DNA from: Clostridia bacterium
GTDB taxonomy: Bacteria > Bacillota > Clostridia > Christensenellales > CAAEEZ01
Assembly: GCA_900755035.1 (NCBI GenBank)
Contig: CAAEEZ010000014.1
Coordinates: forward strand, 16,863-80,862
Direction: 5' to 3'
Length of the DNA stretch: 64,000 bases
Shown here: in pieces, positions 864 through 18,930 of the stretch
Layout of the letters: every line of letters begins with the position of its first letter
Position numbering within the stretch: the first letter of the stretch is position 1
Position numbers and translations under genes: made by a program
The notes under the pieces: generated by a model
Told to the model about the DNA's origin: nothing
Seen by the model: the letters and a program-made list of their open reading frames with translations, nothing else
Database searches by the model: none

Positions 864-915
864 CAAAATGTCAAGGCTTACCTTGAATACGAATAAGGAG
901 AAAGGAGAGAATTAT

Positions 916-1917: not shown

Positions 1918-1949
1918 ATCGCACTACAAATTGTGGTGCGATTTTTTTT
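1918..1949 (+). terminator. Rho-independent terminator after the 916..1821 gene
   Basis: ATCGCAC ... GTGCGAT stem followed by a T8 run. Confidence 0.5.
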
Positions 1950-2025: not shown

Positions 2026-2054
2026 TTGACTTATTCGTTTTTGTAAATTAAAAT
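2026..2054 (+). promoter_or_regulatory. Sigma-A type promoter of the giant gene
   Basis: TTGACT (2026..2031), a 17-nt spacer, then TAAAAT (2049..2054). The RBS GAGAGG lies 6-7 nt upstream of ATG 2108. Confidence 0.5.
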
Positions 2055-2107
2055 AAATATGTGCTTATATTATATATACGCACGTGATGTAAAATTGAGA
2101 GGTAATT

Positions 2108-2185
2108 ATGAGAAAGTTGTTTAGTTGGAAAAAACTCGTTTTGGTTGCAGTATGCATCGCAATGGTTTTCACCTTCGTTGCATGT
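2108..2185 (+). other. Sec/SPase II lipoprotein signal peptide with lipobox F-V-A-C (Cys26)
   Basis: In MRKLFSWKKLVLVAVCIAMVFTFVAC|GEKT there is a basic n-region, a hydrophobic h-region, and a lipobox ending at Cys26 (2183..2185). Confidence 0.75.
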
Positions 2186-5100
2186 GGCGAAAAAACGAAC
2201 GTCGGCGGTAACGTCGTAGACAATCCTACTTTTAACCAAGAGTTCGGTCAATTACAAAGCGACCCTACTTCTGCGTTAAGTAAAGTGGCAGCGGCGCTGT
2301 TTACTGAAAGGGAAAACAAAAACAAAGTTAACCTAGGTTTTAACGGTGACCTAAAACTTAAACTTGGAAATAACGAACTTGTAGATATCAACGTGGACCT
2401 TCGTCTAAGCGTTGATAGAAAAGATGCAAGTGGTTCGAAGTTTAGTTTGGTAATAAACCGTAAAGGAAAAGATGGTGTTCAAAACCCGAAGATGCTACTT
2501 GGGGCGTACTTCGACGGGGTTGAATTGAAGGTGGACGCTCGTGGTACAAACGGGCATTTTTACGTTGTTGACACCGATATTATTTATCTTGTAAATCTTA
2601 TCGCGTCGGCTATAAATCAAACGCCGATAGAGGATACGTTGCAAGACGTAAGTAAGTACATAAAATCTTTGTTCCCTGTTCTTGGCGCAAGTATGGTAAA
2701 AGCAGGGGCAATGGACGTGTATGAGAAGTACGTTGCCGAGACGAATTCCTCGCAAATTACTTCGACCATCTACTTGAAGAAAACGATTATGTACGTAAAC
2801 AAGTTCCTAAGCGGTAACGGCGATATTAAAGGCGACTTGTACGAAACTATCGTTGGAATGGTTGGCGCAGACAAAATAAACCAAATCATCACGACGCTTA
2901 ACAAAGTTGCTAAATTCGTGCCTGACAACGCAACTATAAATATAGGTCTTGGCGTTATTGGCGCAAACGATAATTACAACCTAGTAAACGGCTCGTTCAA
3001 AGTTGGTTTTTCTAGCTTAGAGGCAGGCGTAACTGCGGTAGAACTAAGTATGGACGACCAAGCCGATTACGTTAAAAAACCTACCGATCCTCCTAGCGAA
3101 GAGGAAATTGACCGTGCAAAACTAGGTGCGGTTGCTTTTGACGTTGGTCTTGACGTAAGAATTACGAAAGGTAAAGTTTCTTTTGCAGATATCGACAAAG
3201 CACTTGGCGGAATACTAAACGGCTTTGTTCAAGGACTAGACCAAGATATTGATTTTAGCAAAAACTATATAGAAGTACCGGAAAGCGTTGGTACGGCTTT
3301 GCGTATTTCTTTTGCATTCCAACTAGATATAAAAGATAACAACAAAACAAACATTCTCGCAGAAATATATTTTGATAGCAACGGTAACGAAAAGAACGAT
3401 GACGGTAAGTCTTTGTTGCAAATTTATTATGTAGGTAAAGACCAAGCCTTCTATATCGATTTATCAGGATTTGGTAAGGCAAGCACTCTACCTAATAAAT
3501 TAAAGATTACAAAAGACTTAAACGGTAATTCTATTAACCTAACTCAAATGTTCTCGGATTTTATCCAAAAGATGATTACAGAGAGCGGTAAACTTGATTT
3601 CTCAACCGTAATTTCTATGGTAGCGGACGTATTTGGCAAGGATAAAGCCCCTGTAACCGAGGAGCAAGTTCAAACAATTAACCAAAAAATGCTTAACGAA
3701 TACGCTATTCCTACCGTAACTAACGAGCAAGGCGGAACTTCAATCGACGTAATGGCTATCGTTAAAATAATTTTGAAAGAATTACAATGGGACTACAACG
3801 ATAACGGCTCTTTCTACGGCTTCTCAGTAGAGATTTCGGCAAAAATGTTTAGGGAAATATTTGCCCAAATGGGTATGGATATTTCTCTATTAAAAGGTGC
3901 GTCGCTAGGTATTCACGTTACGCCGGATAAAGGTTTGGGAATTGAACTTGACGTAACTATAAACGCTGAAACTTACAAGGCTAACGGAGCAGACGAAGAT
4001 ATTGCAAACGATTTCCCTACTATGAACTTAGGGCTTGAAGTTTATATCGATTTATTTAAGGCGTTTGACGAAAGCAGGTTGCCTGCAGATAGACTAGACA
4101 ATAATTGGCAAACTCTTGAATTAAAATCAAAGGTTGATGAAAATGGCAAACTAGATATACTAAATTCTTTGCTTGCATCGTTATCGGGTAAAAAGGTATA
4201 TCTAAGTGCTGCTGCTCAATTTGATTTGCACGTAGACCAAAGTAACGGTGAAATCAACGTTGGCTCGTCGCTAAATAGTTCGATAGGTGGAGCGCTTGGC
4301 GCTGCTCTTGCCGACCTACAATTAAAGACGGGTGCAATAGACGTAACTTATACGCTAAAACTTGTTGCAAACGTAGATCTTGGCTCGTTAGTGAATATAA
4401 ATACCACCGAAGACGTAATGACGATAATCAAAAAAGTCCTTGGTGGCGACCAAGAATTAAGCATTACTTTAACTGCTAACTACGGACCGTACGGCGGACA
4501 AAAAGACGAAGAGATTTTGGCAATGCTACTAAGCAAGGGAGCATTGTATTTTGACGCCGAAAATATCGGTATTCCTAAAACTAAGATAGAACTTGATTCG
4601 TTATTCGAGGCAATCGACGGCTTATTGAAGAAACCGGAGAAAAACGATACTCCGTCTACTTCTGAGGCGACCGCAAGCGACCCTAACGCAACGATTAAAA
4701 CCGTGATTGCAATTCTTTCTAACGTAGACGTTATTAAAGTTATGGAGGGTGAAATTGCAATCGCTCTAAACAGCGCATTCCTAAACGTTTTAATCCCTAT
4801 GTTCGTAGGTGGTGGCTCTACGGGTCAAGCAGGTGATACCACGACGGGTACTATCGACCTAACGATGTCCAAAATTGAACTTGGTATCGACTTTAACAGC
4901 GATATTTTCAACAAGGATAAGGACTTTGAAAGCGTATTTAACAAAATGACTATCTATCTGGATTTGGCTACCGATCTAAGTGGAACGCAAGTTAACTTAG
5001 GCGTTAGAATTGGTGGAATAAATCTAGGTATCGTAGATACTAACGTAGATGAAGATTTGAAGGTAAGAAAAGCCTTCTTCCAAAATAGAAACGAGGACGA

Positions 5101-8100
5101 ATTTACTAATCCGTTAGAGAATAGTTTGTTAAACTTCGGTTTGACAGGTACGTTTAGATTAACGGGAGATGGCGAATTTACGTTTAATAATAAACCGCTT
5201 AATGGCGAAATAGGCGAGTTGTTGTCTACTTTGGCATTAATCATAGGTATGGATAACTTAAATGCAGTTATCAATTTGAATTTTGCTGCAGCTATTGACC
5301 TATCTAACTTTGAAAGCAATAATACTCAAATAGCTTTGACGCTAACTAATGCTAGCAATGATTTAATAGTAGGAGTTTACGTATACGATAAGTACGTGTA
5401 CGTAAATATTCCCGGACTGATTAAACCTTTCAGGCTTGAATTCGACGTAGTAAGTCTAATTTACGATTTAATTCAAGGCAATATTAAGTTGCCTGGAAAA
5501 GGCGAGGGACAAAACCCTGGTGGCGCAGTTGCGACTGCTGAAGGAGACGTTACTCAAGCAGAAGTACTTCGTTCTCTAATAAGTGTATCTACAAAAACTG
5601 CTAACGTAACTTTATCTTCTAATATGATTAAAGGTTTAGTATCGGCTCTTGTTGGTAGTATGACCAAAGGCGACGAAACGAATCCTCCTAAGATTGACCC
5701 ACAACTTGGCGACGAAATTATATCGCTAGTACAAACGTTGCCGTTTGACATTATGTTCATTGGTAGCGTATCGCACGAGTACGACGGCGAAGGCGCTGAT
5801 ACTTTCCTAGATAACTTGGTAGTTGACCTAAATATCTACGTAGGCGAGAAACTGGTAGAAGCGTACGAGCGTGGCGATGATTTGTCAAAACCACAAAACG
5901 GTGTAGTAGGACTAGGAATTAAACTAGGCGATATATATATAGATTATATAGATAGTAATAGTAAATTAGATGTTATAAGAGCGGCACTAGAAGAAAATAG
6001 GTACGACGACCTAGGCAAAATAGAGTCCGTAACTAACTTTGACATCAAAAATATACTAGCAAATACCAAAGCATCGCTTGCTTTTGACGGTTACTTATCG
6101 ATAACTTCTAACGGTGTTGATATCGGCTCAGACCAAACGATAGACAATAACATCATGATAGAGTTAAAAGAAATCATGAATACGCTACCTGAATTATTGA
6201 TAAATATAGGGGCGTTGCAAGTCGGCAAAGCAGATTTAATGAAGTTGTACTTCCACTTGGCAGTATCTGCTGATATAGGCGCAATACTTGATGGAAACTA
6301 TAACGACGCTATCGAGTTGTCGCTTGGTATTTATAGAGAAAAGTTTATAGATTACACTACTAGTGATAATGATAAACTCCTAAGCGTAGTGGTACTTTCC
6401 GGTAAAAATAGCGGAACGAAGGGCGTAACGTTATACGTGGACGCAAAAGGTCTTGCCGCAGAAGGTACTAATAACGATATTTTAAGTGGAAAGATTAAGC
6501 TTGAAAATATCGATCTAAATAGTTTGTTTGGAAGCTTGGGTATTCAAGAAACTGCAAGCGCAACCGCTGACGACTTTAATACCACGATGGTAAAAATGAA
6601 CGGCGTTATAGGTATAATAAACAGTGCATTACAAGCTATTTCTATAAGTAATAGTGGCTTGACCGTAAATCTTGGTGAAAAACTAATCGGTGTTATCGTA
6701 AATTTAATTACGAAAAACGACGGTTCGGTAAATGCAGGCGCATTGCCACTTACGGCAGGGGATATTAGGCTTGTTCTAAAACAATATGAAGAACAAGGTA
6801 TTACGTACGAGCCTGGATTACATGCCAAACTTGGCTTTAAGAATAAGGACGGTGGAGATACTGCGATTGCACTTGGTATCGGTCTATACAACTTGAATAT
6901 CGCATTTGCAAAAATGTCAGGTGCGTTCTTGCATGAAGATACTTTCGATACTTCTGAATACGTTTCTTTGCAAGAATTAAAACAAGTATCCGTATCGCTT
7001 GATTTAGGTTTGGACGTTGATATGAAAGAAGGCGTACATAACCTTAACCTATTAAATAAATACGGTAAGTTTATTGGCTCGCTTCAAAGCGTACTTGCAT
7101 TAACCGAAGAAGGCGGAAAGATCGTTATTGACCAAGGTGGCGCGGCTAAGGACTTGCACCTAAACGTATTGGTTCAAGGACAAATTGGCATTGCCGACGT
7201 AAATGCTACTGAGGTAAAACTACTTGTAACTAGCCATCCAACGCAAAAAGATAGATTAGACAAAACAAACGGTAAAGTTTTGGTTGCTATCTATTTGTAT
7301 AAAGATGAAATTTACGTTCAAAGCGATATATTAAATATAACCAACTTCAAAATCCCTAGTCTTGGTATCAGCCAATATATCAGCGACACCATAGGTGATT
7401 TGTTAAGTGGTGCAGGTGCTCAAGCTGCGGCGTTTGCTACGGCTAGCGAAGGACTTGATTTCTTAATCGGCGACAGAATGGCTGAAATAACCATAAGCAA
7501 AGTATTCTTGTCGACTTTGATTAAATACTTAGTACCTGCTGAAAGCGCAGACCTTGTAGACGCTATAATTAACAACTTGTTCCAAGGTTTGAAATTAGAT
7601 ATAAATCTAAGAACTATGTCGGCTTCGATTAACTTAGATGCAATTCTAAACGAAAAACCTGATAGCACGGGTGGACTAATTAACGCTACCTTAGCAATGC
7701 AAGGACTAGAAATTAGCGTATTTGAAAAGAATTTTATAAGCGAAGCAGATAAACAAACGTTTGCTAATTGTACTGAGGCAAAAACCAATGCATTTATTGA
7801 ATTTGGCGCAAGCGCAAGTATTAAGAGAGAAAAGATTACGGAGGATAAACAATTAACTCCGGATAATATCTTTGGACAATTAGCCGGCGTAGTGGACAAT
7901 TTGGATATGTTAGACCCTAATATCAGAGGTACTATCAATAGTATATTAAGGTCATTATATATCAATATTATGAGTGCTAAGGATGGTCAAGGTGTTCCTA
8001 CTGATGATGGTATGTATGTAAAATTAAACGTACTTGTACAAGTAAACCTTGATTGGAATAGTTGGCAATCGCTTGACCTAAGTAAATCTTCGTTTAGATT

Positions 8101-11100: not shown

Positions 11101-14100
11101 AAGCGTGGATATCGTAGGACTAATAGGTAAACTTGTAAGACAAATTACTATATCTATGTATGCAGTAAGGGTAGCTGTAAGTGAAAACTTATTGTCGTAC
11201 ATTCCTGAACTAATGGAAAGCCTTGGCGTACAAGGATTCCCAGAGTTTGGATATCCGTCGCTAAACGAAAACAACTATATTCAAATAGGTTTAATACAAA
11301 ACGAGAAGGTAGACTTGTCGCTTCTATTAAATCTTGATATGTTTGGTCTAAATACTCAAATTGCAATCGAGGACGTAGGTCTTGGACTTGGCTCGAAGAA
11401 AGATATCGAGATGCCAAAAGATTTCTACGACGCTGAAAATAAAAAATTTATCGTAAGCAATTTGGATAAATTAGACAGTAGCAACAGCATACTAAACGTA
11501 AACGTAGAGGCTGAATTAAGATTAGATATCAACGAAGCAGATACCAACTTGTCAGCGTTACTTGGTGGTTTACTTGGCGATTTGAAAGTAGGCTACAAGA
11601 ACGATAAGACCATAACTAAGGACTTCTTATTAAGAATTAACGCACAAATAGATATTGCTGATTATTCGTTGGTACTTGGCGTGGAGATTATCGAGCAATT
11701 TGTAGATGGCGTAACTGCTCCTGTTACGGTGCTTGGTATTTATTATGATAGCGTAGATAGTACTGCGTACGTAAAATCTACAATATTGCCAAACATGAAG
11801 ATAACCGGTTTGGAACTAGATGTGCTTCTTGGTAAACTAATGGGACAATCGGCAGCCGAAGCTACGGCTAATGGTGCAAGTGCTATACGTCCTATTATAA
11901 ATCCGGACGCAATTAAAGAAAATTCTGATAGTCCTTCGGTAAAAGTAACACTTGCAATGCAACAATACTTTGCAGTGGCAATTTCCGGCGAGTTAATTAG
12001 CCAAATTATCAACGGTATAGACCAAATTAACTCTGTACCGGTACTTCCTGATTTTGAAGTAGCGTTAAGATTTGGTAAGAGCACTCCTGATTCTCCATTT
12101 GCAATAACTTTGCAAGTAGGGCTTGGTGAAAATAATCTAAACAACGAAAAGAAGTTCTTAATAGATTTAACTGCTAGCTTGTATCTTGGCCCTGTAAAAT
12201 ACGACCAAGAAAACAATAAGATGAGCGGTGGTACTTACGTAAACTTCTTAACTAAGGACGAGGCAACAAGTACGGATAATCAAATTATCACTAGCGAGAT
12301 GAGAGAATATCCAACGCTACTAAATATTGCGTTTGACGCTAACGGCGATATTAAGCCGGAGGTAATTGCTGAAACGGTAGAATTAGGTATCACTATGTTC
12401 TTGAACCTAGGCCACGAGCAAGGAAACTATAATTTCAGCAGTTTGTTAGCAGGTATCTTTGGTGAAAACGTAGAATTCGTTGCTATGGTTGAAGCATTAG
12501 AAAAACGTCAAACGAATCTTGCTATCGACGTAAAGGCGCAAATCAACGTAAATAACCTAATAATGAACGCATTGTCGGGTGTTGGCGTTAGTTTGAAGGG
12601 TACTAACTTGCAACTTACCATAAGCAAACAAGAATGGGATGATAAGAATAAGCAATATACTCCATTAGAAAAGGTAATGCAACTTACCTTCAAAGGTGGC
12701 GCAGGTAAGGACGGCAACGACGCATTATATCTAAAACTGTACGGTGCAGGTAGAAAAGATCCTAACGACGTAAACAGCACCGAGGATATCGCAATCGTTG
12801 TAGATACCATAAATATTATGGATATAGTAAACAAGGCAACAGGTCAAAGCACGGCAATATCTACTGCTAGCCCAACCACAGCCCTTGCAGACTTTATAAA
12901 TACTATAATCAAAGACGTTCATATTCGTGAGGTAGAGAGCGAAACAGGTGAAAAGTATATTAGAGCCGACGTAAACTTCGCTGCACATATCTTTGATGAC
13001 GTAATTAAACTTGTTACGTTGCTTACGTCGGATACGGCGAACGCTACTACCGAGCAAATTATGAACACCATTGCAAAATTGAATTTACCGGACGTAACAA
13101 GAGGCGGATTGTACCTAGCGTTCAACCAAAGTAAAGTTGGTCTTGGCGTAGGTCTTGACGTGCAATTAAATAATTCGGTAAATATCGCGCTAGGCTTAGA
13201 AATAAACGCTCTTGGCATAGTTAAGGACGAATCCGGCTTGATAATGCCTGAGGGAAAAGTAAGCGAATACAAGTCGGTTAGCGATTTGCAAGTAAAATTA
13301 CACTTCGAGGGTTATGCCGAGATGTCGAACCATAATACCCCAGAACCTATGAGTATAGGTGGTATTATCACTACTATCCTAGGACTACTTAACGTAAACG
13401 TAGGCGACGTAGACTTCAACGTAGAAACCACGAGCACCGAAAAATACGGCTTGATTTTGGACGGATATATCGACACTAACGATTTCCAACTAGATGAAAA
13501 CGGCAAGCCAAAAACAGCAAACACTAAGATTAAATTGTCGCTAACTAAGGAAAACCTTGTAAGTCAAGGTGAAAACGGCAGTCCAAAACACTTGCTTGAT
13601 ATCTACTTGGATTTTGCTAAAAAAGGCGTATATATTGACCTAACCGGTATGAACCTACCTAAACTTGCATTAACGGGACTAGATTTAGGTCAAATGCTTG
13701 GTAATATTATTAGCCCATATCTTGGTGGCCAACAAGGAACACAAACCATAGATGCAACGGCAACTGCTGATGGCAAAACTGTAATGTCGGCTAATAAATT
13801 GTCTGCAATGTTGTACTTAACTTTGGGCGTAGACGAAACTTCGCTAAGGTTTAATGCAGACCTAATCAACGCAATACTTCAACTTGTACTTGGCTACCTA
13901 AGCGACGCTAACCCTAATAACGATATTATAAATACGCTAAAAGGTATGACGTTGCCTGATTTTGGTACGGTTGCTCTAAGTTCGTTCAAGGACGAATCTG
14001 GCGTAGACCACTTGGAAGTACGTATTTACAGGGTAGCAGGTAAAGTGGATGATAACTATCTAGCGCTAGGCGTTAAGAACGCATGGTGGAACGTAAATCC

Positions 14101-17100
14101 TACGACTAACGGTAGCGATTTGGCAGTAACGAATACTGCTGATTACGGTACTATCTACGACCTAAAAGACGGTCTTGGTTTAAGGCAATTATACGTAGAT
14201 ACGACTATTAGCCTAAAATTTGATTTCAGCGATCCTGATAAAGCAACCGAGGCTAGCTCGTTTACAAGATATATCAGCAGAATGCTTGCGTTACTTATTG
14301 ATAAGAGTACGGACGAGGCAGCAATCAATAAGTACCAAATTATGATCGTAAGCGACAACGAGGCTAAGAAAGTACTTCAATACGAATTAAGAATAAAAGG
14401 TATTTTGGATATTACAGATATCTTTGGTGGTAGCAACCTATCTATCGAACTATGGAAGATGGATTTAATTCATACCGCACCAGATGATAGAAACAACGTA
14501 ATGTTACTTGGTGCTTACCTAAGAAAAGATTCAAGCAACGGTTTACCTACCTTGTTTGTGGATCTAAATAACTTAGGTTTACCTAGAATTAAACTAGTAG
14601 GTATAGACGTACTTCTTGGTGGATTAGGTTTGTCTTCGGCAACTGCTCAAAGCAACGTAATAGGCACCGGTAATTACGACGCTGTTGCGCAAGCCGCTAA
14701 AGATTTGCAAAACAGAGTAGTGATTGAGGATAATCAAGTTAAACTTGAAATCAATCAAGGATTCTTGTATGGTATACTTAGCGCTGCGCTTCCTGATGTA
14801 TTTAAGGATGGCTATATCAATGCGGGTGCAATGAAATTGCCTCTACCTAATGTTGCAGGTGTTGAACTACTTGTAGACCTATCTAACGGACTACAAAAAT
14901 TAAATCTAAACGCATATCTTGAAAAGGAAACTAGCAATCATATAGGTATCGAAATTAGACTAAACGAACTTGATATTGCCGGTGGCGAGAAAACCTTTGC
15001 TGATAATAAGATAGTTTGGACCGAGGTTGGAGATAAATATAGCAACGTTAAAGGTGAAAACTACTTTAATACGTTTGGCGCTGTACACGTAGGTACTTCG
15101 TTCACTGCTGATATGATTAATGAACTAGTTGAGTCTATAGATCCTAATATATTGATTCAGTATAACAAGAGAAGTGACGGATATTATAGGTGGCCAGGAC
15201 TTGCCACTGGTCATTACGAGACGATGTATCAACATGCCATTACCAGTGGAAAGGGCTGGGATTACAGAAGAATGGGTCAATCCTGGAATAATATTCTACT
15301 TAGTAGAGCATCAGGGAATAAGGCACAAGCCATAAGGCTTGCTGTTGTTGCTCGTTCTGGTGCAAATAATAGCACGTATGGTGGTACTAACCCTATATGG
15401 CCAACGCAAAAATTGCAAAATGGCGAAGCGATGGTAGACGTTTATTTGGGAGGAGATGGCAATATTTATGCAGATATTGATAAAGCTGCGAGAGTTACCA
15501 ATGCCTTAGGAGGAGTTATTCCTATCATAGCAATACCAGCAGGATTAAAAATTGGAAATATGATATTTGGTGCTGAGAATTCTGCTACATACGATGATCC
15601 TAATATAAGCGCAGTAGCTCTTGGCACGTCTGGTATGGCAACTGCTGCCAAAACCCCGAATGAAGAATTTTCTAGTATTTTTGCTAACTTTGATATAGGT
15701 AGTTTCTTAAAGGGTATCGAGATAAGAATTTATACCAATACAGAGAAGAATGGTGGATATGCTCAAACGGAAATTCAAGTCAAAGTAGACCCTGTAAAAA
15801 TTAATGAGATATTTAGAGCTGTAAACTATATGTTAGCAAATGTATTTGACCCTAAACATCAAGCAGCACATTGGAATGGCGACGGAGGAATCAACGACGC
15901 AAATAAACCGGTGATGCTTGGTGATACACTAAGGATATTCATTAAAGATGAGGTAAATGCTACGCTTGGAGGACTTATTTGGAACAATACTGCGAACGCA
16001 GATACTGATATTGGAAACTTGTTGGGTTCGTTATTGCCTCTTCCTGAATTAAATTGTAATTTGAGCGAAAGTGATGGTACTCATTTAGGAATGAAACCTA
16101 CAAGCGATCAGGCTACAAAGCTCGAATACGTAAGAAGTGAGTTAACATTGACGTTAGGATATAATCCTAATGAAGTAGGCATAGTTGGAGCATTAAAGTC
16201 AATAAATGCACAGTTTGGTAATAAATATGGTTTTGGTACTCACGAAAGCGGAAATAATGACCAGGCGCTGGAAGCAGTTAATCGTAAACTTGGATGGTTA
16301 GAATTAAACATTAAAGCACATGGAAACAATGAATTGCTTGGTACAAAAGCAGTATCTACCGTTAACGGCTACAACCGAGGAGAAGACGTATTGCAAAGAT
16401 TGTCTGAACAATACATTGCATCGGGTAACGGATATCCAATCGACGGTGGAAAAGAGGGAATTACCATTACCGATCCTGTTAAGTCCGTAGAAGAGATAAG
16501 AGAAAAAGTCGTAAACGGAAAAGGACTACCTACCAAAGCGAACGTTTCTTACCTAGACGGCACTTCTACAGGTGGTGCAATCAACGGCGAAGCAGAAACC
16601 ATGGTATCTATCGTATGGGACGATTCAAGGATAGATCTTAGCCCTAACGGAAGCAAAGATAGTTACCTATACGGCTGGATACAAAACAAGATGATTGCAA
16701 AAATCAAAGTAACCGTTGACACTAAGTATGAATTAAAGAATATTGACAGCTTTGAAATGGCTATAACTAGCGAACAAAACGCAATCGCTATTGAGAAACT
16801 TGGCAGTGGCAATATAGTTAAGCCAGATGGTAGCGCAAATATTAAGATAATAATGGAGTCCTACCTAACGAAGAACTTGCCGTCAATTATCTACGTACAA
16901 CAAGGCAACGAACCACTTCCTTGGATTTACTCGACTACTGCAGTTAAACGTATTATTTACAGAGAAATTACGGCAACGGGTGTACCTGGCAAAGAATACG
17001 ATAGCGAAACTAAAGAAGGTTTGACAGTACTATGGGATAGTGAAAGAGGCGAATACGTAAACGTAGAAGAAGTTGGTTGGAGGGGCGACTGGTATATCAG

Positions 17101-18889
17101 CAAAGATAGAAAAGAGCCTTGCCAAGGTAAACTTGAATGGGATACGTCAAATCTTGCTTGGTCTGCATTGAATCCTTACCTAATCAATACTACGGTAGGT
17201 GATGGAACGGTAGGTATGAAACTTATCACAGGAAAGATGGACGACTTCGTGCTAAAAGGCATCAAGGTTGAAGTAGAAAGAACGCTAGACGACAATGCGA
17301 TTATCGACGGATTAAATAAGGTATTTGGTGCATCTTCTAAAGATATGCTAGAAATAGATATTATTGATATGCCAAACTTTATCGAGAAGTTTAAGGAAAT
17401 CAGCAATGCCGTTACGGGTAACGGAGTAACTAGTTACGAAGGCAAAGGACTGGAAATAGACTTCGATGGCGGACTAAGGCTGAATATAAATCCTGACGAA
17501 ATATCGTTTGACTTATCTAATATCAATAGTTGGATAAGTGATGGTGGTAATAAATACGGTGGTGACGTACTAATTCTACCTGTCAAGATAACTAGAACAA
17601 TCAATAACCCTGGTGATATCGACGGAAGAGAAACCAACGTATTAAACGTAGACGTAAAAGTCAAGATAAATATGCTGGAACTAGTCGAGATAAGGTTAAA
17701 GAAGATGATGCTTATCGGAGGGCAAGAGATTCCTGAAACGATACAAATCGCGCTAAATCCTTACGGCGATTTTGTAAGTCAATTAAAGAAACAATTTGCG
17801 CCAGAGCAAGGCGTAAGGTATGTAATTGAAGGCATATTTAGGTCGAGCGATGGAATGCTTGATAAGTCTAAGCACATAGAGATTACCGAGGATTCGTTCG
17901 ATATGAATAGTACCGCAAGAGTTAAGTTTGACCTATCGTCTATCTACGGCACGTATACTTACAAGGGTGGTAATTCCTTCCTAAGAGTATTTGTTGGAGA
18001 TAATGCACTAGGATATTTGCAATCTATATTGCCAATTAGCGTAAGCGGTAGAATACTTCAAGGTATGACGATAGTTAATATCGACGAAGTAAACGTACTA
18101 GACGCTAACAGCCTAAGCAATATAGGCAAAGCCTTAGAGTTACAATTGAAGTTCTTGAAAGTTGGCGCAGATATCGAAAGTGATACTAATAACGTTCAAA
18201 TTGTATGGTACGATAAAGATAAATTGATGGAAGCTGCAAAGACGGGCAAGAAAGATTTAAGAATTGATGCAATTATCGGATTTAAGCAAAATGGCGAAAC
18301 GAAATTGAACAACTACTTGAATCAAAGAGTAACGCTACTTATCAAAAACGTTAAACAAATCTATGCTATGAGCCTTGTAAGGTTTGCTGGATTCCCTATC
18401 AATAAGGGTGCAGACGGCAAGTATATGCTACCTGCTAACGTAAATACCAACGTGGGCGATTTAGTTTATAGATATCACGACGAAACGGGTAGCCACGACG
18501 TAACTATCAAAGACGTAACCTTAACGGGCGACTTCAATGCTAAGACGGCTTACTACACGATAGGATTGTTTGACTTTGCTATCAAAGTGGACGACGATAT
18601 TACAAGAGTAACCAACTTCTTTACGGTAGATGCAGAAGGCAACAAGACGGACGTAAATAGGGTATTTAGCCAGGAGGCAGACGGAACGCTTGTAGTTAAG
18701 TACTCGTTCGTAGAAAAATTACCTAGCAAGCTAGTTATGGAACTAGCCGTACCTACCTTTGACGAAAAGGGTAATATAAACGGACAAAAACTAGTTTACG
18801 TAGACGTAAATCTAACCGGAACGTCTAGCCTAAAAGAAGCAACGGTACAGTATGGAGTACATACCATTAAGGTAAAAGTTACGAAATAA
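2108..18889 (+). CDS. Giant (5,593 aa) predicted surface lipoprotein with tandem ~290-aa modules; family unknown
   Basis: A single uninterrupted ORF of 16,782 nt. Its codon and dinucleotide usage matches neighbouring genes over most of its length. It has an N-terminal lipoprotein signal, its own promoter and its own terminator. It is extremely Cys-poor and rich in Asn/Gly/Leu/Asp/Ile/Val/Thr/Ala. I see no LPXTG, SLH, cell-wall-binding repeat or C-terminal TM segment. Confidence 0.9.
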   Translation: MRKLFSWKKLVLVAVCIAMVFTFVACGEKTNVGGNVVDNPTFNQEFGQLQSDPTSALSKVAAALFTERENKNKVNLGFNGDLKLKLGNNELVDINVDLRLSVDRKDASGSKFSLVINRKGKDGVQNPKMLLGAYFDGVELKVDARGTNGHFYVVDTDIIYLVNLIASAINQTPIEDTLQDVSKYIKSLFPVLGASMVKAGAMDVYEKYVAETNSSQITSTIYLKKTIMYVNKFLSGNGDIKGDLYETIVGMVGADKINQIITTLNKVAKFVPDNATINIGLGVIGANDNYNLVNGSFKVGFSSLEAGVTAVELSMDDQADYVKKPTDPPSEEEIDRAKLGAVAFDVGLDVRITKGKVSFADIDKALGGILNGFVQGLDQDIDFSKNYIEVPESVGTALRISFAFQLDIKDNNKTNILAEIYFDSNGNEKNDDGKSLLQIYYVGKDQAFYIDLSGFGKASTLPNKLKITKDLNGNSINLTQMFSDFIQKMITESGKLDFSTVISMVADVFGKDKAPVTEEQVQTINQKMLNEYAIPTVTNEQGGTSIDVMAIVKIILKELQWDYNDNGSFYGFSVEISAKMFREIFAQMGMDISLLKGASLGIHVTPDKGLGIELDVTINAETYKANGADEDIANDFPTMNLGLEVYIDLFKAFDESRLPADRLDNNWQTLELKSKVDENGKLDILNSLLASLSGKKVYLSAAAQFDLHVDQSNGEINVGSSLNSSIGGALGAALADLQLKTGAIDVTYTLKLVANVDLGSLVNINTTEDVMTIIKKVLGGDQELSITLTANYGPYGGQKDEEILAMLLSKGALYFDAENIGIPKTKIELDSLFEAIDGLLKKPEKNDTPSTSEATASDPNATIKTVIAILSNVDVIKVMEGEIAIALNSAFLNVLIPMFVGGGSTGQAGDTTTGTIDLTMSKIELGIDFNSDIFNKDKDFESVFNKMTIYLDLATDLSGTQVNLGVRIGGINLGIVDTNVDEDLKVRKAFFQNRNEDEFTNPLENSLLNFGLTGTFRLTGDGEFTFNNKPLNGEIGELLSTLALIIGMDNLNAVINLNFAAAIDLSNFESNNTQIALTLTNASNDLIVGVYVYDKYVYVNIPGLIKPFRLEFDVVSLIYDLIQGNIKLPGKGEGQNPGGAVATAEGDVTQAEVLRSLISVSTKTANVTLSSNMIKGLVSALVGSMTKGDETNPPKIDPQLGDEIISLVQTLPFDIMFIGSVSHEYDGEGADTFLDNLVVDLNIYVGEKLVEAYERGDDLSKPQNGVVGLGIKLGDIYIDYIDSNSKLDVIRAALEENRYDDLGKIESVTNFDIKNILANTKASLAFDGYLSITSNGVDIGSDQTIDNNIMIELKEIMNTLPELLINIGALQVGKADLMKLYFHLAVSADIGAILDGNYNDAIELSLGIYREKFIDYTTSDNDKLLSVVVLSGKNSGTKGVTLYVDAKGLAAEGTNNDILSGKIKLENIDLNSLFGSLGIQETASATADDFNTTMVKMNGVIGIINSALQAISISNSGLTVNLGEKLIGVIVNLITKNDGSVNAGALPLTAGDIRLVLKQYEEQGITYEPGLHAKLGFKNKDGGDTAIALGIGLYNLNIAFAKMSGAFLHEDTFDTSEYVSLQELKQVSVSLDLGLDVDMKEGVHNLNLLNKYGKFIGSLQSVLALTEEGGKIVIDQGGAAKDLHLNVLVQGQIGIADVNATEVKLLVTSHPTQKDRLDKTNGKVLVAIYLYKDEIYVQSDILNITNFKIPSLGISQYISDTIGDLLSGAGAQAAAFATASEGLDFLIGDRMAEITISKVFLSTLIKYLVPAESADLVDAIINNLFQGLKLDINLRTMSASINLDAILNEKPDSTGGLINATLAMQGLEISVFEKNFISEADKQTFANCTEAKTNAFIEFGASASIKREKITEDKQLTPDNIFGQLAGVVDNLDMLDPNIRGTINSILRSLYINIMSAKDGQGVPTDDGMYVKLNVLVQVNLDWNSWQSLDLSKSSFRLLLTDTGNNPVLDVYLIGSNDTMYIDAPLLGTNTKLALNGINLIELYEQSKNPDGGETVSELSTATAGVDMQKILGIIDGVIGKIEFADGGMSVGFAPKALVAIAGALGLVPSLDSGLVDAVGSLVETLPNTSEGSGIYIDYAKEVNNKTSPVVGLRYGLDGVGMIDINLNHYALGAVNDFASVDVTTLPFKDKDGLAKMRDFAKYDGEYSNLSKLQNIQLDIKGELKAGLESNKTNPMDLSSMVQGVLGSILSLAPLQEIGAKIYSDVKGTDVLNFRVQANLDIAHIVENLQLGLTVYKKNSTSEALIEVFYDKGSLYVNAPDYLGEKALKIANLLELFSGNGGASSTATGEGETLPSETIKQAAALNVIFGKEFVGVHVTSGIFAILVQLLQGMDINLTEDMFASLENQFDIGIEIGSTNVDEHLSLPELYASLSIKFGPVMLGLKASEPRVSIGSKESIVPQRIIDNSAHFSEVTFRVQAEGRLGISADKTILDLNALLKEFGVNETLDFGVDIANPNDPNGKPINLHLGLELDAEICLGDISKCNIALRVNAYKDEYSFSATNPSEQKKIGEVLALYMHKNSLYLDLKNNIIELTEVHINTEALTGIIDAIKGAISGEQTTAPGQSGAVSTAEATANDTAKEQLILSNLIQLNFNGVGAADGEGVFSDLGSITAEIGGVVIQKVLEMLGLNHLAGAGLAAVIKIDTPTEGNSNFGIGINVVTGDNSTLINNLGLYVWLGNIKVVKQSENTEESRKASLLPPAELVQNAFELSDLYKQFISVDITASLSMMTSTVEPPTDTDENAGDNSLIMKNLITEFFKGFVPWMPDFVAQLEIIGKENGMTYEDFMSSHAIRLQANVNLGMLINNKTCTICKKDFNSSDAIYQAKKVCPYCGASNEQIEDKGFYLDDIDLGIEILRNTKVELATVSETLLGLYIRNSQIAFYGEPFGLNNFVIERDAVESIANTIKYIIGQGTSSGASNGALSTAGESGGETSGASVDIVGLIGKLVRQITISMYAVRVAVSENLLSYIPELMESLGVQGFPEFGYPSLNENNYIQIGLIQNEKVDLSLLLNLDMFGLNTQIAIEDVGLGLGSKKDIEMPKDFYDAENKKFIVSNLDKLDSSNSILNVNVEAELRLDINEADTNLSALLGGLLGDLKVGYKNDKTITKDFLLRINAQIDIADYSLVLGVEIIEQFVDGVTAPVTVLGIYYDSVDSTAYVKSTILPNMKITGLELDVLLGKLMGQSAAEATANGASAIRPIINPDAIKENSDSPSVKVTLAMQQYFAVAISGELISQIINGIDQINSVPVLPDFEVALRFGKSTPDSPFAITLQVGLGENNLNNEKKFLIDLTASLYLGPVKYDQENNKMSGGTYVNFLTKDEATSTDNQIITSEMREYPTLLNIAFDANGDIKPEVIAETVELGITMFLNLGHEQGNYNFSSLLAGIFGENVEFVAMVEALEKRQTNLAIDVKAQINVNNLIMNALSGVGVSLKGTNLQLTISKQEWDDKNKQYTPLEKVMQLTFKGGAGKDGNDALYLKLYGAGRKDPNDVNSTEDIAIVVDTINIMDIVNKATGQSTAISTASPTTALADFINTIIKDVHIREVESETGEKYIRADVNFAAHIFDDVIKLVTLLTSDTANATTEQIMNTIAKLNLPDVTRGGLYLAFNQSKVGLGVGLDVQLNNSVNIALGLEINALGIVKDESGLIMPEGKVSEYKSVSDLQVKLHFEGYAEMSNHNTPEPMSIGGIITTILGLLNVNVGDVDFNVETTSTEKYGLILDGYIDTNDFQLDENGKPKTANTKIKLSLTKENLVSQGENGSPKHLLDIYLDFAKKGVYIDLTGMNLPKLALTGLDLGQMLGNIISPYLGGQQGTQTIDATATADGKTVMSANKLSAMLYLTLGVDETSLRFNADLINAILQLVLGYLSDANPNNDIINTLKGMTLPDFGTVALSSFKDESGVDHLEVRIYRVAGKVDDNYLALGVKNAWWNVNPTTNGSDLAVTNTADYGTIYDLKDGLGLRQLYVDTTISLKFDFSDPDKATEASSFTRYISRMLALLIDKSTDEAAINKYQIMIVSDNEAKKVLQYELRIKGILDITDIFGGSNLSIELWKMDLIHTAPDDRNNVMLLGAYLRKDSSNGLPTLFVDLNNLGLPRIKLVGIDVLLGGLGLSSATAQSNVIGTGNYDAVAQAAKDLQNRVVIEDNQVKLEINQGFLYGILSAALPDVFKDGYINAGAMKLPLPNVAGVELLVDLSNGLQKLNLNAYLEKETSNHIGIEIRLNELDIAGGEKTFADNKIVWTEVGDKYSNVKGENYFNTFGAVHVGTSFTADMINELVESIDPNILIQYNKRSDGYYRWPGLATGHYETMYQHAITSGKGWDYRRMGQSWNNILLSRASGNKAQAIRLAVVARSGANNSTYGGTNPIWPTQKLQNGEAMVDVYLGGDGNIYADIDKAARVTNALGGVIPIIAIPAGLKIGNMIFGAENSATYDDPNISAVALGTSGMATAAKTPNEEFSSIFANFDIGSFLKGIEIRIYTNTEKNGGYAQTEIQVKVDPVKINEIFRAVNYMLANVFDPKHQAAHWNGDGGINDANKPVMLGDTLRIFIKDEVNATLGGLIWNNTANADTDIGNLLGSLLPLPELNCNLSESDGTHLGMKPTSDQATKLEYVRSELTLTLGYNPNEVGIVGALKSINAQFGNKYGFGTHESGNNDQALEAVNRKLGWLELNIKAHGNNELLGTKAVSTVNGYNRGEDVLQRLSEQYIASGNGYPIDGGKEGITITDPVKSVEEIREKVVNGKGLPTKANVSYLDGTSTGGAINGEAETMVSIVWDDSRIDLSPNGSKDSYLYGWIQNKMIAKIKVTVDTKYELKNIDSFEMAITSEQNAIAIEKLGSGNIVKPDGSANIKIIMESYLTKNLPSIIYVQQGNEPLPWIYSTTAVKRIIYREITATGVPGKEYDSETKEGLTVLWDSERGEYVNVEEVGWRGDWYISKDRKEPCQGKLEWDTSNLAWSALNPYLINTTVGDGTVGMKLITGKMDDFVLKGIKVEVERTLDDNAIIDGLNKVFGASSKDMLEIDIIDMPNFIEKFKEISNAVTGNGVTSYEGKGLEIDFDGGLRLNINPDEISFDLSNINSWISDGGNKYGGDVLILPVKITRTINNPGDIDGRETNVLNVDVKVKINMLELVEIRLKKMMLIGGQEIPETIQIALNPYGDFVSQLKKQFAPEQGVRYVIEGIFRSSDGMLDKSKHIEITEDSFDMNSTARVKFDLSSIYGTYTYKGGNSFLRVFVGDNALGYLQSILPISVSGRILQGMTIVNIDEVNVLDANSLSNIGKALELQLKFLKVGADIESDTNNVQIVWYDKDKLMEAAKTGKKDLRIDAIIGFKQNGETKLNNYLNQRVTLLIKNVKQIYAMSLVRFAGFPINKGADGKYMLPANVNTNVGDLVYRYHDETGSHDVTIKDVTLTGDFNAKTAYYTIGLFDFAIKVDDDITRVTNFFTVDAEGNKTDVNRVFSQEADGTLVVKYSFVEKLPSKLVMELAVPTFDEKGNINGQKLVYVDVNLTGTSSLKEATVQYGVHTIKVKVTK
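2540..15646 (+). repeat. Protein-level tandem array of ~13-16 diverged ~290-aa modules (no nucleotide-level repeat)
   Basis: The module-end signature recurs. Examples are ALYFDAENIGIPKTKIELDSL, TLYVDAKGL...KIKLENIDLNSL, TMYIDAPLLGTNTKLALNGINLIEL, SLYVNAPDYLGEKALKIANLLEL, GVYIDLTGMNLPKLALTGLDLGQM and TLFVDLNNLGLPRIKLVGIDVLL. Each is followed by a G/S/T/A linker with an (S/A)TA core at nt 4667, 5531, 6560, 7436, 8291, 9143, 10010, 11063, 11861, 12860, 13754, 14639 and 15638. Spacing between motifs is 266-351 aa and mostly 284-299 aa. Confidence 0.6.
10718..10789 (+). other. CxxC-X16-CxxC zinc-ribbon-like knuckle pair inserted in one module of the giant protein
   Basis: In NNKTCTICKKDFNSSDAIYQAKKVCPYCGASNEQ the cysteines are at residues 2871, 2874, 2891 and 2894. 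The host module is about 60 aa longer than the typical module. Confidence 0.55.
14700..16380 (+). other. Compositionally atypical in-frame segment of the giant gene
   Basis: My hand counts of CG dinucleotides per 60-nt printed line are mostly 0-3 here. Flanking lines of the same gene give mostly 4-6. There is also a visible shift toward GAT/AAT/GGA codons from the GAC/AAC/GGC codons that dominate elsewhere. The encoded region is Trp/Tyr/His-richer (YYRWPGLATGHYETMYQHAITSGKGWDYRRMGQSWNN). Confidence 0.5.
16450..18886 (+). other. C-terminal ~800 aa of the giant protein: probable string of beta-sandwich / Ig-like domains
   Basis: Segments recur that look like LP..V.V...DG......V.W(D)...., for example LPTKANVSYLDGTSTGG...MVSIVWDDSRIDLSPNGSKDSYLYGWI, GLTVLWDSERGEYV, KLEWDTSNLAWS and VQIVWYDKDKL. 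These resemble the Big_4-type pattern found in Firmicute surface proteins. The match is by eye only. Confidence 0.35.
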
Positions 18890-18900
18890 CGATATAATTT

Positions 18901-18930
18901 AGCCCCGATTAGTCGGGGCTTTATTATTTT
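18901..18930 (+). terminator. Rho-independent terminator of the giant gene
   Basis: AGCCCCGA-TTAG-TCGGGGCT hairpin followed by a T-rich tract, 12 nt after the stop codon. Confidence 0.8.

Follow-up and report, generated by a model that had tools for sequence, protein, structure and literature searches.

A 5,593-residue predicted lipoprotein of an undescribed modular family from a Clostridia bacterium, a candidate surface fibril or adhesin

The giant adhesins and fibrils of Firmicutes (Ebh, SasC, SraP; Big, Rib, FIVAR or Cna-B proteins) carry beta-sandwich repeats of 70-110 residues that are near-identical to one another and variable in number, and are held at the cell by LPXTG/sortase, SLH, CWB or C-terminal TM anchors. 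Among uncultured gut Firmicutes, giant surface proteins with novel repeat families are not rare. Wall-less Mollicutes possess large multi-domain surface lipoproteins, several of them cleaved by proteases at short motifs within disordered segments. Two kinds of lipid-handling proteins also invite comparison, namely the AsmA/TamB/YhdP and eukaryotic VPS13/ATG2 repeating-beta-groove proteins, which are very long, beta-rich and membrane-anchored at the N-terminus, and the LolA/LolB/LppX-LprG carriers, in which an unclosed beta-barrel surrounds a helical plug. To our knowledge, tandem arrays of LolA/LolB/LppX-type domains have no precedent. A survey of giant Clostridia proteins from gut metagenomes describes constructions of RCC1, beta-propeller, dockerin, LRR or fibronectin domains (bioRxiv 10.1101/2023.11.21.568195). 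None of those domains is present in the giant protein described here, which is encoded in a stretch of 64,000 nucleotides from an uncultured gut Clostridia bacterium (contig CAAEEZ010000014.1; hereafter, the window).

The giant protein resembles the Firmicute adhesins in its size class, its (here predicted) extracellular location, its tandem array of one module, its acidic and Cys-poor composition and its rapid divergence; distal Ig-like (Big_4) domains are a further likeness, seen in distant family members only. Unlike the Firmicute adhesins, it is predicted to be anchored through an N-terminal lipobox, its module is a mixed alpha/beta unit of about 286 residues, its module copies are divergent and positionally conserved, and it is without any detected known repeat family: Big, Rib, FIVAR, Cna-B and cadherin domains gave no Pfam match in the giant protein or in two orthologs. 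The protein represents a new repeat family inside a known general kind. Its features are listed in Table 1.

Table 1. Positions in the window of the giant lipoprotein gene, its parts and its neighbours
Feature	Positions	Strand	Residues	Remarks
TetR-family regulator gene	269..823	-		Pfam TetR_N, E=1.5e-10
Gene for 317-aa cytoplasmic protein, no assigned function	868..1821	+		faint DUF4380 match, E=0.0088
Second terminator-like hairpin	1918..1942			behind upstream gene
Sigma-70-type promoter-like site, TTGACT-N17-TAAAAT	2026..2054	+		consensus only, 10/12 matches
Shine-Dalgarno GAGAGG (RBS)	2097..2102	+		read from sequence; ATG 5 nt downstream
Giant lipoprotein CDS	2108..18889	+	5,593 aa	mature form 603 kDa, pI 4.6
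Signal peptide and lipobox F-V-A-C	2108..2185	+	1-26	lipidated Cys26 predicted; PROSITE-type regex
N-terminal region, two degenerate modules	2186..3715	+	27-536	HMM 18 and 91 bits
Module 3	3716..4666	+	537-853	family HMM 130, leave-one-out 34.9 bits; AF2-modelled
Module 4, begins ATA	4667..5530	+	854-1141	HMM 143, leave-one-out 29.1 bits; AF2-modelled
Module 5	5531..6559	+	1142-1484	profile HMMs
Module 6	6560..7435	+	1485-1776	profile HMMs
Module 7	7436..8284	+	1777-2059	profile HMMs
Module 8	8285..9139	+	2060-2344	profile HMMs
Module 9	9140..10009	+	2345-2634	profile HMMs
Module 10	10010..11062	+	2635-2985	inserted CxxC-X16-CxxC zinc-ribbon-like knuckle
CTIC...CPYC knuckle in module 10	10718..10789	+	2871-2894	four Cys
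Module 11	11063..11860	+	2986-3251	profile HMMs
Module 12	11861..12859	+	3252-3584	profile HMMs
Module 13	12860..13753	+	3585-3882	profile HMMs; first AF2 model
Module 14	13754..14638	+	3883-4177	profile HMMs
Module 15, divergent last copy	14639..15637	+	4178-4510	HMM 52, leave-one-out 9.7 bits
Non-module C-terminal region, presumed distal end	15638..18886	+	4511-5593	1,083 aa, 119 kDa
C-terminal segment shared with P0005	16460..16918	+	4785-4937	BLASTP E=2.7e-8
Intrinsic-terminator-like hairpin and T-run	18901..18930	+		hairpin proper 18901..18920
Two Gate-domain (SpmA/SpmB-like) genes	20454..21520	-		

The giant gene is read from an ATG through 5,593 codons with 0 internal stops and occupies 26.2% of the window, in agreement with the single uninterrupted frame of 26% described in the first-pass annotation. 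At 39.5%, its GC content is near the 39.1% of the whole window. The promoter that had been called good is present as a site, but such sites show no enrichment over shuffles: two were found, with 1.8 expected. Because shuffled sequences give similar counts, the site is compatible with a promoter and is not proof of one. The hairpin terminator proposed behind the gene was recovered as an 8-bp stem with six GC pairs and a 4-nt loop, followed by the T-run TTATTATTTT. A second terminator-like hairpin lies between the 317-aa gene and the giant gene, and since the two hairpins flank the giant gene, a monocistronic unit is plausible.

The two upstream genes accompany the giant gene at related loci. 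TetR shows 96% identity between the window and L004, and its position is unchanged in L003, L004, L005 and L006; it is probably unlinked to the giant gene in function. The 317-aa gene, with identities of 81% (L004) and 65% (L003), is always found directly upstream of the giant gene. The SecA proteins of the window and L004 fall into the same 90% cluster, and the giant proteins of the two are only 56% identical. At 56% against 81-96% identity, divergence is far faster in the giant protein than in the neighbouring ones.

The N-terminus (MRKLFSWKKLVLVAVCIAMVFTFVAC, followed by GEK) fits the PROSITE PS51257-type lipobox rule at Cys26. The criterion asks for an uncharged hydrophobic h-region and then a Cys at about position 15-35, and the regular expression [LIVMFWSTAG]2-[LIVMFYSTAGCQ]-[AGS]-C matches as T-F-V-A-C, so that the SPase II-type signal named earlier, with lipobox FVAC and Cys26, is predicted here as well. 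The rule holds for each of the 16 family members whose N-terminus is complete, at Cys24-27, position -3 being Phe in the window protein and Leu in most relatives. The n-region, MRKLFSWKK, has 3 K/R within its first 8 residues, and 3-4 K/R are present in each of the 16. A Kyte-Doolittle peak of 2.44 spans aa 4-29; the signal peptide is the sole strongly hydrophobic 19-mer except for a borderline module helix (aa 883-901), and apart from that helix no second TM-like segment exceeds the threshold. No C-terminal sorting signal or C-terminal hydrophobic segment was found, a scan for LPXT[GAN] gave a single, internal match (LPLTA, aa 1546), and SLH, CW_binding and LysM had no Pfam match. Motif, hydropathy and Pfam scans therefore bear out the reported lack of LPXTG, of SLH or wall-binding repeats and of a C-terminal TM helix. 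Together with the absence of any library match (see below), the conserved lipobox supports a membrane-tethered extracellular mega-protein, as had been proposed.

The protein is acidic, rich in Asn, Asp and Gly, and poor in Cys. Besides Cys16 and Cys26 of the signal peptide, there are exactly nine Cys in the mature chain (positions 1888, 2538, 2545, 2871, 2874, 2891, 2894, 4650 and 5005), four of them in the CTIC...CPYC knuckle, which matches the earlier count of about nine with four in one knuckle. Scans of the giant protein returned no DxDxDG calcium motifs and a lone RTX-type GG.G.D match (GGAGKD, aa 3530); collagen-like repeats and coat-protein features were likewise not found in it.

Between the signal peptide and the C-terminal region lie 15 tandem modules, two degenerate (at about aa 50-178 and 211-499) and 13 clear. 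The building block, previously estimated at about 290 residues, was confirmed by leave-one-out profile HMMs: omitted modules score 8.9-54 bits, each above all 100 of its own shuffles, whose maxima are 4.4-11.3 bits. The repeats are visible solely with profile methods; BLASTP self-comparison of the giant protein found none even at E=50, and pairwise phmmer among the modules yielded marginal matches only. By the family HMM, the module count per family protein is 13-17. Paralogous modules are 14-25% identical and orthologous modules 35-68%. Because orthologous modules are more alike than paralogous ones, the array is, on these alignments, old and free of concerted evolution. The conservation of each module position suggests that the modules do more than add length. 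An internal duplication of the module into two RBG-like halves was considered and rejected (hhalign probability <1%).

Two modules stand apart. Module 10, with a leave-one-out score of 8.9 bits, is among the two most divergent copies; its knuckle gives faint zinc-ribbon family matches in Pfam and NCBIfam, all under their cut-offs, and the four Cys are retained in orthologs P0003 and P0004. Module 12 has the highest share of strain-level variable columns (12%). The inter-module linkers are Gly/Ser/Ala-rich and carry a near-invariant Thr-Ala motif, [A/S]-T-A-[D/E], in which Thr/Ser reaches 86% and Ala 94% across 67 family linkers, family modules otherwise being about 15-20% identical. In the window protein, [AS]T[AG] is found in 13 linkers.

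No known family accounts for the module. Scanned with hmmscan in six overlapping pieces (E<=1), the protein had no significant match in Pfam or NCBIfam, a PHROGs search of the giant protein gave none, and PDB sequence searches with single sequences, a two-module profile and a C-terminal profile found nothing significant. The PDB searches listed only two rows, both of them de novo designed proteins (E about 0.8). An AF2 model of modules 3-4 reached a mean pLDDT of 71.9 and a pTM of 0.56, with 36% strand and 26% helix by DSSP; each module comprises about 11-12 strands and 4-5 interleaved helices. The linker, including the Thr-Ala motif, and the chain ends fall below pLDDT 50, which together with the pTM fits flexibly joined units. 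Foldseek of module models against PDB and BFVD gave no significant match; a first AF2 model of one module, from 13 paralog rows, had a pLDDT of 56.8, and its Foldseek matches are meaningless. The earlier description of the family as unrecognised holds in every domain and structure library searched, and the confident profile or structural match that would have spoken against it was sought in Pfam, NCBIfam, PHROGs, PDB and BFVD and not encountered.

A repeat-profile search found 36 proteins among 1.84 billion representatives, eleven of which are giants of 5.6-7.9 kaa. The source names examined are all "hypothetical protein", and they come from MAGs of Clostridia, Eubacteriales or Christensenellaceae. 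This undescribed family is marked by a lipobox, at least 13 tandem modules, Thr-Ala linkers and a non-module C-terminal region, all of which the window protein shows, with 15 module matches. The short family matches that were checked are apparent fragments from short contigs and not single-module genes. An oyster protein (P0024, E=2.9e-7 over 66 positions) is considered a chance match or contamination, as the iterated family HMM does not match it. A word-index search with the N-terminal 1,300 aa retrieved one fragment only (P0001); those with module and C-terminal alignments retrieved nothing and missed known relatives too, so their negatives weigh little. A GTDB scan with the single giant protein found no relative; a second scan used signal-peptide patterns only, so it reaches close relatives and does not show absence elsewhere.

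The C-terminal region is more hydrophilic than the module region (GRAVY -0.27 vs +0.02) and beta-rich, as judged by eye only. It was matched neither by the module HMMs nor, even with an ortholog profile, by Pfam or PDB entries. The only part of it that BLASTP detects in the distant member P0005, aa 4785-4937, aligns to P0005 residues 5826-5995 and holds the pattern 'LP..A.V.Y.DGT...V.WD', which is Big_4-like by eye and not confirmed by hmmscan. In P0013, a distant member, the C-terminal region contains CarboxypepD_reg domains and Big_4, the latter exceeding the Pfam cut-off with 34 bits, and that of P0005 has a Big_4 match below threshold. By these profiles, the C-terminal region appears Ig-like only in distant relatives and not in the window protein.

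What might such a protein do? Most likely, with a probability of about 0.5, it is a lipid-anchored, segmented surface fibril or adhesin. This reading is the best fit among the three put forward by the first-pass annotation, given the segmented globular modules, the flexible linkers, the C-terminal region that looks beta-rich and the fast divergence. The protein would be exported by Sec, and Lgt and signal peptidase II would attach diacylglycerol to Cys26, so that the lipidated N-terminus remains inserted in the outer leaflet of the cytoplasmic membrane. Each module would form a globular bead of its own on flexible linkers, giving a segmented stalk of roughly 60-100 nm (our own estimate from domain sizes) that spans the wall and keeps the C-terminal region away from the cell. 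There, the C-terminal region may bind a partner, for instance a glycan, a particle, another microbe or host mucus, and the exposed position would account for the rapid sequence divergence. Because the module fold matches nothing, we infer the stalk from architecture and not from homology. Pfam recognised no binding domain in the giant protein, which counts against an adhesin. The modules are also unusually hydrophobic for a passive spacer, and the near-invariant Thr-Ala motif is unaccounted for in a simple stalk.

An alternative is that the modules are LolA/LolB/LppX-like half-barrels that bind hydrophobic ligands or lipids, in which case the chain would be a membrane-anchored conduit, relay or reservoir across the wall and not an adhesin. 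Its cargo would be lipids or lipid-linked envelope precursors. Lol proteins have the highest Foldseek probabilities for the two-module model among matches with >100 aligned columns (LolB 9tpm, 0.69; LolA 9azz, 0.66 and 0.44), followed by TbpB (0.35, 0.33) and LolB 1iwm (0.28); the lipid-binding LmcA 7shw reached only 0.09. The first single-module model independently drew FadL and ORP3 lipid-binding domains; the number of strands and helices per module is similar to that of the carriers, and the relative hydrophobicity of the modules and the individual conservation of each position are also consistent with this reading. However, none of these matches is significant (E >=1.7e-3, TM <=0.29, rmsd >=15 A). 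For the carriers themselves, E is >=1.8e-3, target-normalised TM 0.22-0.29 and rmsd 15-16 A, values that do not establish an equivalent fold. The module exceeds the carriers by about 100 residues, there is no sequence-profile similarity, neither lipid-binding families of Pfam and NCBIfam nor PDB sequences are matched, and lipid transport beyond the membrane has no clear purpose in a presumably single-membrane Clostridia cell. We regard this explanation as unlikely.

A polyprotein-like precursor has also been considered, in which [A/S]-T-A-[D/E] serves as a proteolytic processing or glycosylation site and about 15 distinct units of about 30 kDa, in place of a single 600-kDa fibre, form a surface coat or layer. 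The motif far exceeds the modules in conservation, sits in a low-confidence segment as is typical of short linear motifs and, by eye, obeys what we take to be the small-x-small rule of type I signal peptidase sites; the module positions, moreover, are individually conserved. The surface lipoproteins of Mollicutes share the lipid anchor, the large exposed protein, the short linker motif and the fast evolution, although they have no sequence relationship to the giant protein, its host belongs to a walled Clostridia lineage, and processing is here purely hypothetical. Neither a protease gene nor a glycosyltransferase gene adjoins the giant gene in the window, L002, L003, L004 or L005, the short family matches look like contig fragments and not single-module genes, and the motif could equally cap the first helix structurally. 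A precursor of this kind is likewise unlikely.

More improbable still is a new type of extracellular machine in place of a passive fibre, namely a lipid-anchored chain of 15 non-interchangeable half-barrels, each with a hydrophobic pocket, that pass or store lipids across the wall, with the near-invariant Thr-Ala motif as a regulated cleavage or glycosylation site through which the precursor gains its working form. Its cargo may be lipids, or lipid-linked envelope or partner-derived molecules. If true, the chain would be a Gram-positive counterpart, by function and not by ancestry, of bridge-like lipid-transfer proteins.

The AsmA/TamB-like groove suggested earlier found no support. The giant protein is like AsmA/TamB/YhdP and VPS13/ATG2 in its great length, N-terminal membrane anchor, beta-richness, alternating hydrophobic patterns and relatively hydrophobic repeats. 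Yet its anchor is a lipid and not a TM helix, and the model (mean pLDDT 72) has interleaved helices in each module (26% helix), low-confidence linkers and no apparent continuous groove. hmmscan of the six pieces (E<=1, Pfam and NCBIfam) did not return AsmA, AsmA_2, TamB/DUF490, DUF748 or Chorein_N, and Foldseek of the two-module model gave no significant match to TamB, LptD, VPS13 or ATG2, LptDE being at rank 50 (E=0.18, probability 0.03). Proteins of the groove type bridge two membranes, in a diderm envelope or at an organelle contact; outer-membrane markers were not seen within the window.

A role in sporulation, as a spore-surface scaffold or a sheath, was also proposed earlier and is very improbable. 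What speaks for it are the two nearby Gate-domain genes, a protein type that is not sporulation-specific, and a BclA_C match in one ortholog that is weak and below significance (E=0.0017). The neighbourhood is one of housekeeping genes (MetRS, TatD, KsgA, rpoBC, SecA, str operon), the promoter-like site is of sigma-70 type, collagen-like repeats and coat-protein features are absent, and the lipobox would tether the protein to the producing cell's own cytoplasmic membrane.

That the frame is open by accident, as a product of chimeric assembly or of a gene in decay, is hardly credible, given fifteen full-length variants in independent assemblies, frames open at 56%, 46%, 43% and 39% identity, and a gene GC close to that of the window. 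The variants comprise an identical protein (P0048) and 14 others with 97-99.6% identity and 5,587-5,596 aa, on many contigs of up to 329 kb. Orthologous frames run without a stop for 4,455 and 4,478 codons at the first two of those identities, and P0003 (43%) and P0004 (39%) are colinear with the giant protein over its full length. A chimera or interruption was thus looked for and not found. Eight synonymous and five non-synonymous codon differences separate the gene from that of L005 in 2.7 kb. The sole broken copy is P0012 (3,725 aa), a protein with a frameshift-like tail, encoded on a 12.8-kb contig.

Whatever the protein does, its 286-aa module defines a domain family that has no counterpart in Pfam, NCBIfam, PHROGs, PDB or BFVD and merits a database entry and a structure, and 16.8 kb of a small genome are devoted to the giant protein. 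If it is a surface fibril, it would probably be the largest exposed structure of these cells and a prime candidate mediator of attachment to mucus, particles or partner microbes. Cultured Christensenella species aggregate into dense flocs with Methanobrevibacter smithii inside (PMC7002349). No protein of the family turned up under the name of a Christensenella species, its MAGs being labelled only Christensenellaceae, Clostridia or Eubacteriales, and a link to these flocs is therefore hypothetical. No cultured member of the host lineage was found. The lineage is widespread in public metagenomes, its exact EF-Tu occurring on 56 contigs and its exact S12 on 133. One relative comes from a Hadza-labelled MAG.

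The giant gene consists of 5,593 codons without a stop and, as the first-pass annotation stated, fills 26% of the 64-kb window with one uninterrupted reading frame. The promoter-like site proposed upstream and the hairpin terminator proposed downstream (8-bp GC-rich stem and T-run, 12 bases past the stop codon) were both located, each as a consensus match only, and from such matches a single-gene transcription unit is plausible. The GC content of the gene (39.5%) equals that of the window (39.1%), so recent import is not suggested. A protein identical to the translated product (P0048) was found on four contigs, the longest being 285 kb, and 14 further full-length variants (5,587–5,596 aa, 97.0–99.6% identity) come from different assemblies, on contigs reaching 329 kb. 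A 2.7-kb stretch from another sample differs from the giant gene at 13 bases, corresponding to eight synonymous and five non-synonymous codon changes. The orthologs P0003 (5,800 aa) and P0004 (5,654 aa) are colinear with the giant protein from end to end (43% and 39% identity), and in two GTDB species representatives the frame is open across all 4,455 and 4,478 codons compared (56% and 46% identity). The identical protein, the 14 variants and the open orthologs rule out an assembly chimera or pseudogene as far as sequence tells, and the chance that the ORF is an artefact is negligible. Another family member, P0012, has only 3,725 aa and ends in a basic, low-complexity, frameshift-like tail, while its contig runs on; the allele is broken or the assembly is in error.

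Coordinates of features in the window, the giant protein and the loci of relatives (L002–L005)
Feature	Position	Strand	Remark
317-aa cytoplasmic protein gene	868..1821	+	faint DUF4380 match only
Counterparts of 317-aa gene	L004 8307..9206; L003 8210..9151; L005 3001..3954		
Terminator-like hairpin	1918..1942		closes gene upstream of giant gene
Promoter-like site TTGACT-N17-TAAAAT	2026..2054		consensus match only
Shine-Dalgarno GAGAGG	5 nt before ATG of giant gene	+	from sequence
Giant gene	2108..18889	+	ATG start
Hairpin terminator	18901..18930		consensus match only
Linker motif, giant protein	aa 854, 1142, 1485, 1777, 2060, 2345, 2631/2635, 2986, 3252, 3581/3585, 3883, 4178, 4511		
Linker motif, window	nt 4667, 5531, 6560, 7436, 8285, 9140, 9998/10010, 11063, 11861, 12848/12860, 13754, 14639, 15638	+	
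CxxC-X16-CxxC zinc-ribbon-like insertion	10718..10789 (aa 2871-2894)	+	module 10
ORF, 340 aa	26104..27126	+	
ORF, 241 aa	27214..27939	-	
Fused IspD-IspF gene	28190..29299	-	369-aa product
CTTTGAC	44352..44358		just 5' of release-factor-2 ORF
Release-factor-2 ORF	44500..45381		
EF-Tu	50200..51411		
P0012	L002 1400..12577		

BLASTP of the giant protein against itself detected no internal repeat. A pattern, ...LY-x-D...LG...K...L followed by a Gly/Ser/Ala stretch and [AS]-T-[AG], was observed to recur every 266–355 residues. The chain was split at this motif, profiles were built from all pieces but one, and the omitted piece was scored against 100 shuffles of itself. Omitted pieces scored 8.9–54 bits, each above the best of its own shuffles (maxima 4.4–11.3 bits), and the proposed building block of about 290 aa is therefore real. 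With an iterated family profile of 286 positions, 15 copies tile aa 50–4496, the first two being degenerate; no duplication inside the module was found (hhalign probability <1%). The last 1,083 residues contain no module match and are more hydrophilic than the module region (GRAVY −0.27 vs +0.02). Within this C-terminal region, aa 4785–4937 form the only stretch detectable by BLASTP in the distant member P0005, and look Big_4-like by eye, without confirmation by hmmscan.

The array differs from typical adhesin stalks, in which repeats are near-identical and copy-variable. Paralogous modules within one protein share 14–25% identity, compared with 35–68% for same-position modules across species, and the count of 15 is kept in the giant protein, P0003 and P0004; the array is therefore old, its positions individually kept without concerted evolution. 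Between the window and L004, a relative's locus, identity is 96% for TetR, 81% for the 317-aa neighbour and 56% for the giant protein, and the two SecA proteins share a 90% cluster. As a whole, the giant protein evolves fast relative to its neighbours. Strain-level variable columns lie along the whole chain (0–12% per module), with peaks in module 12 and aa 4801–5100.

Only 36 proteins match the module profile (HMMER, 1.84 billion representative proteins, E≤1e-3). Among them are eleven full-length giants of 5,595–7,924 aa with 12–16 matched stretches each; most of the remainder look like fragments, from short contigs in those checked. All source names seen are "hypothetical protein" from Clostridia or Eubacteriales MAGs. 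An oyster protein (P0024, XP_061194365.1, Saccostrea echinata) matched the first module profile at E=2.9e-7 over a 66-position stretch and is probably a chance match, being missed by the iterated family HMM. The PROSITE-type lipoprotein rule holds in each of the 16 N-terminally complete members (Cys at position 24–27), the strongest argument that the predicted lipobox is functional. The longest and most distant members carry Big_4 and CarboxypepD_reg domains, which are Ig-like surface-protein modules, in their C-terminal 1,000–3,200 residues; Big_4 passes the cut-off in P0013 (34 bits) and stays below it in P0005.

Searches of six overlapping pieces of the giant protein against Pfam, NCBIfam and PHROGs at permissive thresholds gave nothing beyond one match confined to the signal peptide and sub-threshold zinc-ribbon matches, the latter falling on the Cys knuckle. 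PDB sequences yielded nothing with the giant protein, a 43-row two-module profile or a C-terminal ortholog profile, and Pfam searches of the C-terminal regions of two orthologs gave only a non-significant BclA_C match. A single-module model from 13 paralog rows was poor (pLDDT 56.8). A two-module model (aa 537–1141, 43 in-register rows of real sequences) reached pLDDT 71.9 and pTM 0.56, with 36% strand and 26% helix, and pLDDT fell below 50 at the inter-module linker (target residues 307–321) and the chain ends. Each modelled module runs through a helix, a short hairpin, a helix and long antiparallel strands broken by 2–3 helices, and ends with the conserved LY-x-D hairpin, one more strand and a C-terminal helix. 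Foldseek returned no match at E≤1e-3 in PDB or BFVD, and the module fold is therefore unrecognised with those libraries. The earlier description of a protein of unrecognised family agrees with the Pfam, NCBIfam, PHROGs, PDB and BFVD searches.

Considering these data, we assign a probability of about one half to the giant protein being a lipid-anchored, wall-spanning surface fibril or adhesin. It would be exported via Sec and lipidated at Cys26, and its 15 globular modules would form a long segmented chain across the wall, presenting the C-terminal region outside the cell. Consistent with this best-supported reading are the anchor, the beads-and-linkers model, the fast divergence of the protein and the Ig-like domains of its relatives. 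As noted earlier, the protein lacks an LPXTG sorting signal and a C-terminal TM helix. LPXT[GAN] occurs once, as LPLTA at aa 1546 in the interior of the chain, and there is no second TM segment. Three features argue that the stalk is more than passive: the hydrophobic modules, their conservation position by position, and the linker motif.

A chain of half-barrels binding lipid or a hydrophobic ligand is an unlikely alternative. Among matches aligning over more than 100 columns, the top Foldseek probabilities were for LolB (0.69), LolA (0.66 and 0.44), TbpB (0.35 and 0.33) and LolB 1iwm (0.28), with TM-scores ≤0.29 and rmsd of ~15 Å; for the single-module model, FadL, ORP3 and porins came up at E>0.1. 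A LolA-like half-barrel should be read as a lead rather than a finding. The AsmA/TamB-like groove suggested at first failed on both testable features, a profile match and a continuous all-beta architecture, and only the loose notion of handling hydrophobic cargo survives from it. A polyprotein processed or modified at its Thr-Ala motifs is as unlikely as the half-barrel chain, and a spore or sheath scaffold is very improbable.

Across the family, 67 linkers share the consensus (Gly/Ser/Ala-rich)-A-x-[A/S]-T/S-A-[D/A/E]-[D/G], with Thr/Ser conserved in 86% and Ala in 94%. A near-invariant dipeptide in Gly/Ser/Ala-rich linkers of low AF2 confidence, within a very divergent family, suggests a short functional motif. 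Type I signal peptidase sites follow a small-x-small rule, which the linker motif fits by eye, so cleavage may occur there; O-glycosylation or capping of the following helix are other possible roles. The Cys count given from the sequence proved exact: the signal peptide has two, Cys16 and Cys26, and the mature chain nine, four of which form the knuckle CTIC-X16-CPYC, a module 10 insertion kept in P0003 and P0004. The 7–8-kaa clade has a different Cys-rich linker insertion, C..H.D.DGDG.CD.CG, between modules 5 and 6 in P0008 and P0012.

Giant repetitive surface proteins of gut Firmicutes are a well-known kind. The Clostridia examples in a survey of giant bacterial genes contain RCC1, beta-propeller, dockerin, LRR and fibronectin domains (bioRxiv 10.1101/2023.11.21.568195). 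The giant protein differs in having a large, mixed alpha/beta repeat unit without known match and an old, non-homogenised array; also new is its predicted lipid anchor, where sortase or wall-binding modules would be usual. The giant protein is solid, well-delimited protein dark matter from a prevalent uncultured gut lineage. Flocculation and methanogen association have been described in cultured Christensenella (PMC7002349); a link to this family, known from MAGs only, is speculative.

The EF-Tu, RpoB, S12 and SecA of the window have exact matches in MAGs labelled only "Clostridia bacterium" or "Eubacteriales bacterium". EF-Tu is found unchanged on 56 contigs but is alone in its 90%-identity cluster; the lineage is thus frequent in public metagenomes and distant from all else sampled. 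Of the two GTDB relatives, one is a MAG named "Christensenellaceae bacterium"; the other is named "uncultured Clostridia bacterium" and has "Hadza" in its isolate name. Housekeeping genes (MetRS, TatD, KsgA, IspDF, rpoBC, MetK, RecD2, SecA, RF2, str operon) surround the giant gene, and no secretion system, sortase, protease or glycosyltransferase gene adjoins it. The 317-aa gene, 65–81% identical across species, lies directly upstream and the divergent TetR gene beyond it, a synteny kept in every relative examined; one distant family member has a PIG-L deacetylase gene upstream instead. The 340- and 241-aa ORFs gave no meaningful Pfam match, only a sub-threshold coiled-coil CEP63. IspD and IspF of the MEP pathway are fused in one product. 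In the release-factor-2 ORF, the PCRF match begins at profile position 48; with the CTTTGAC just 5' of the ORF, this is the classical prfB +1 programmed frameshift arrangement.
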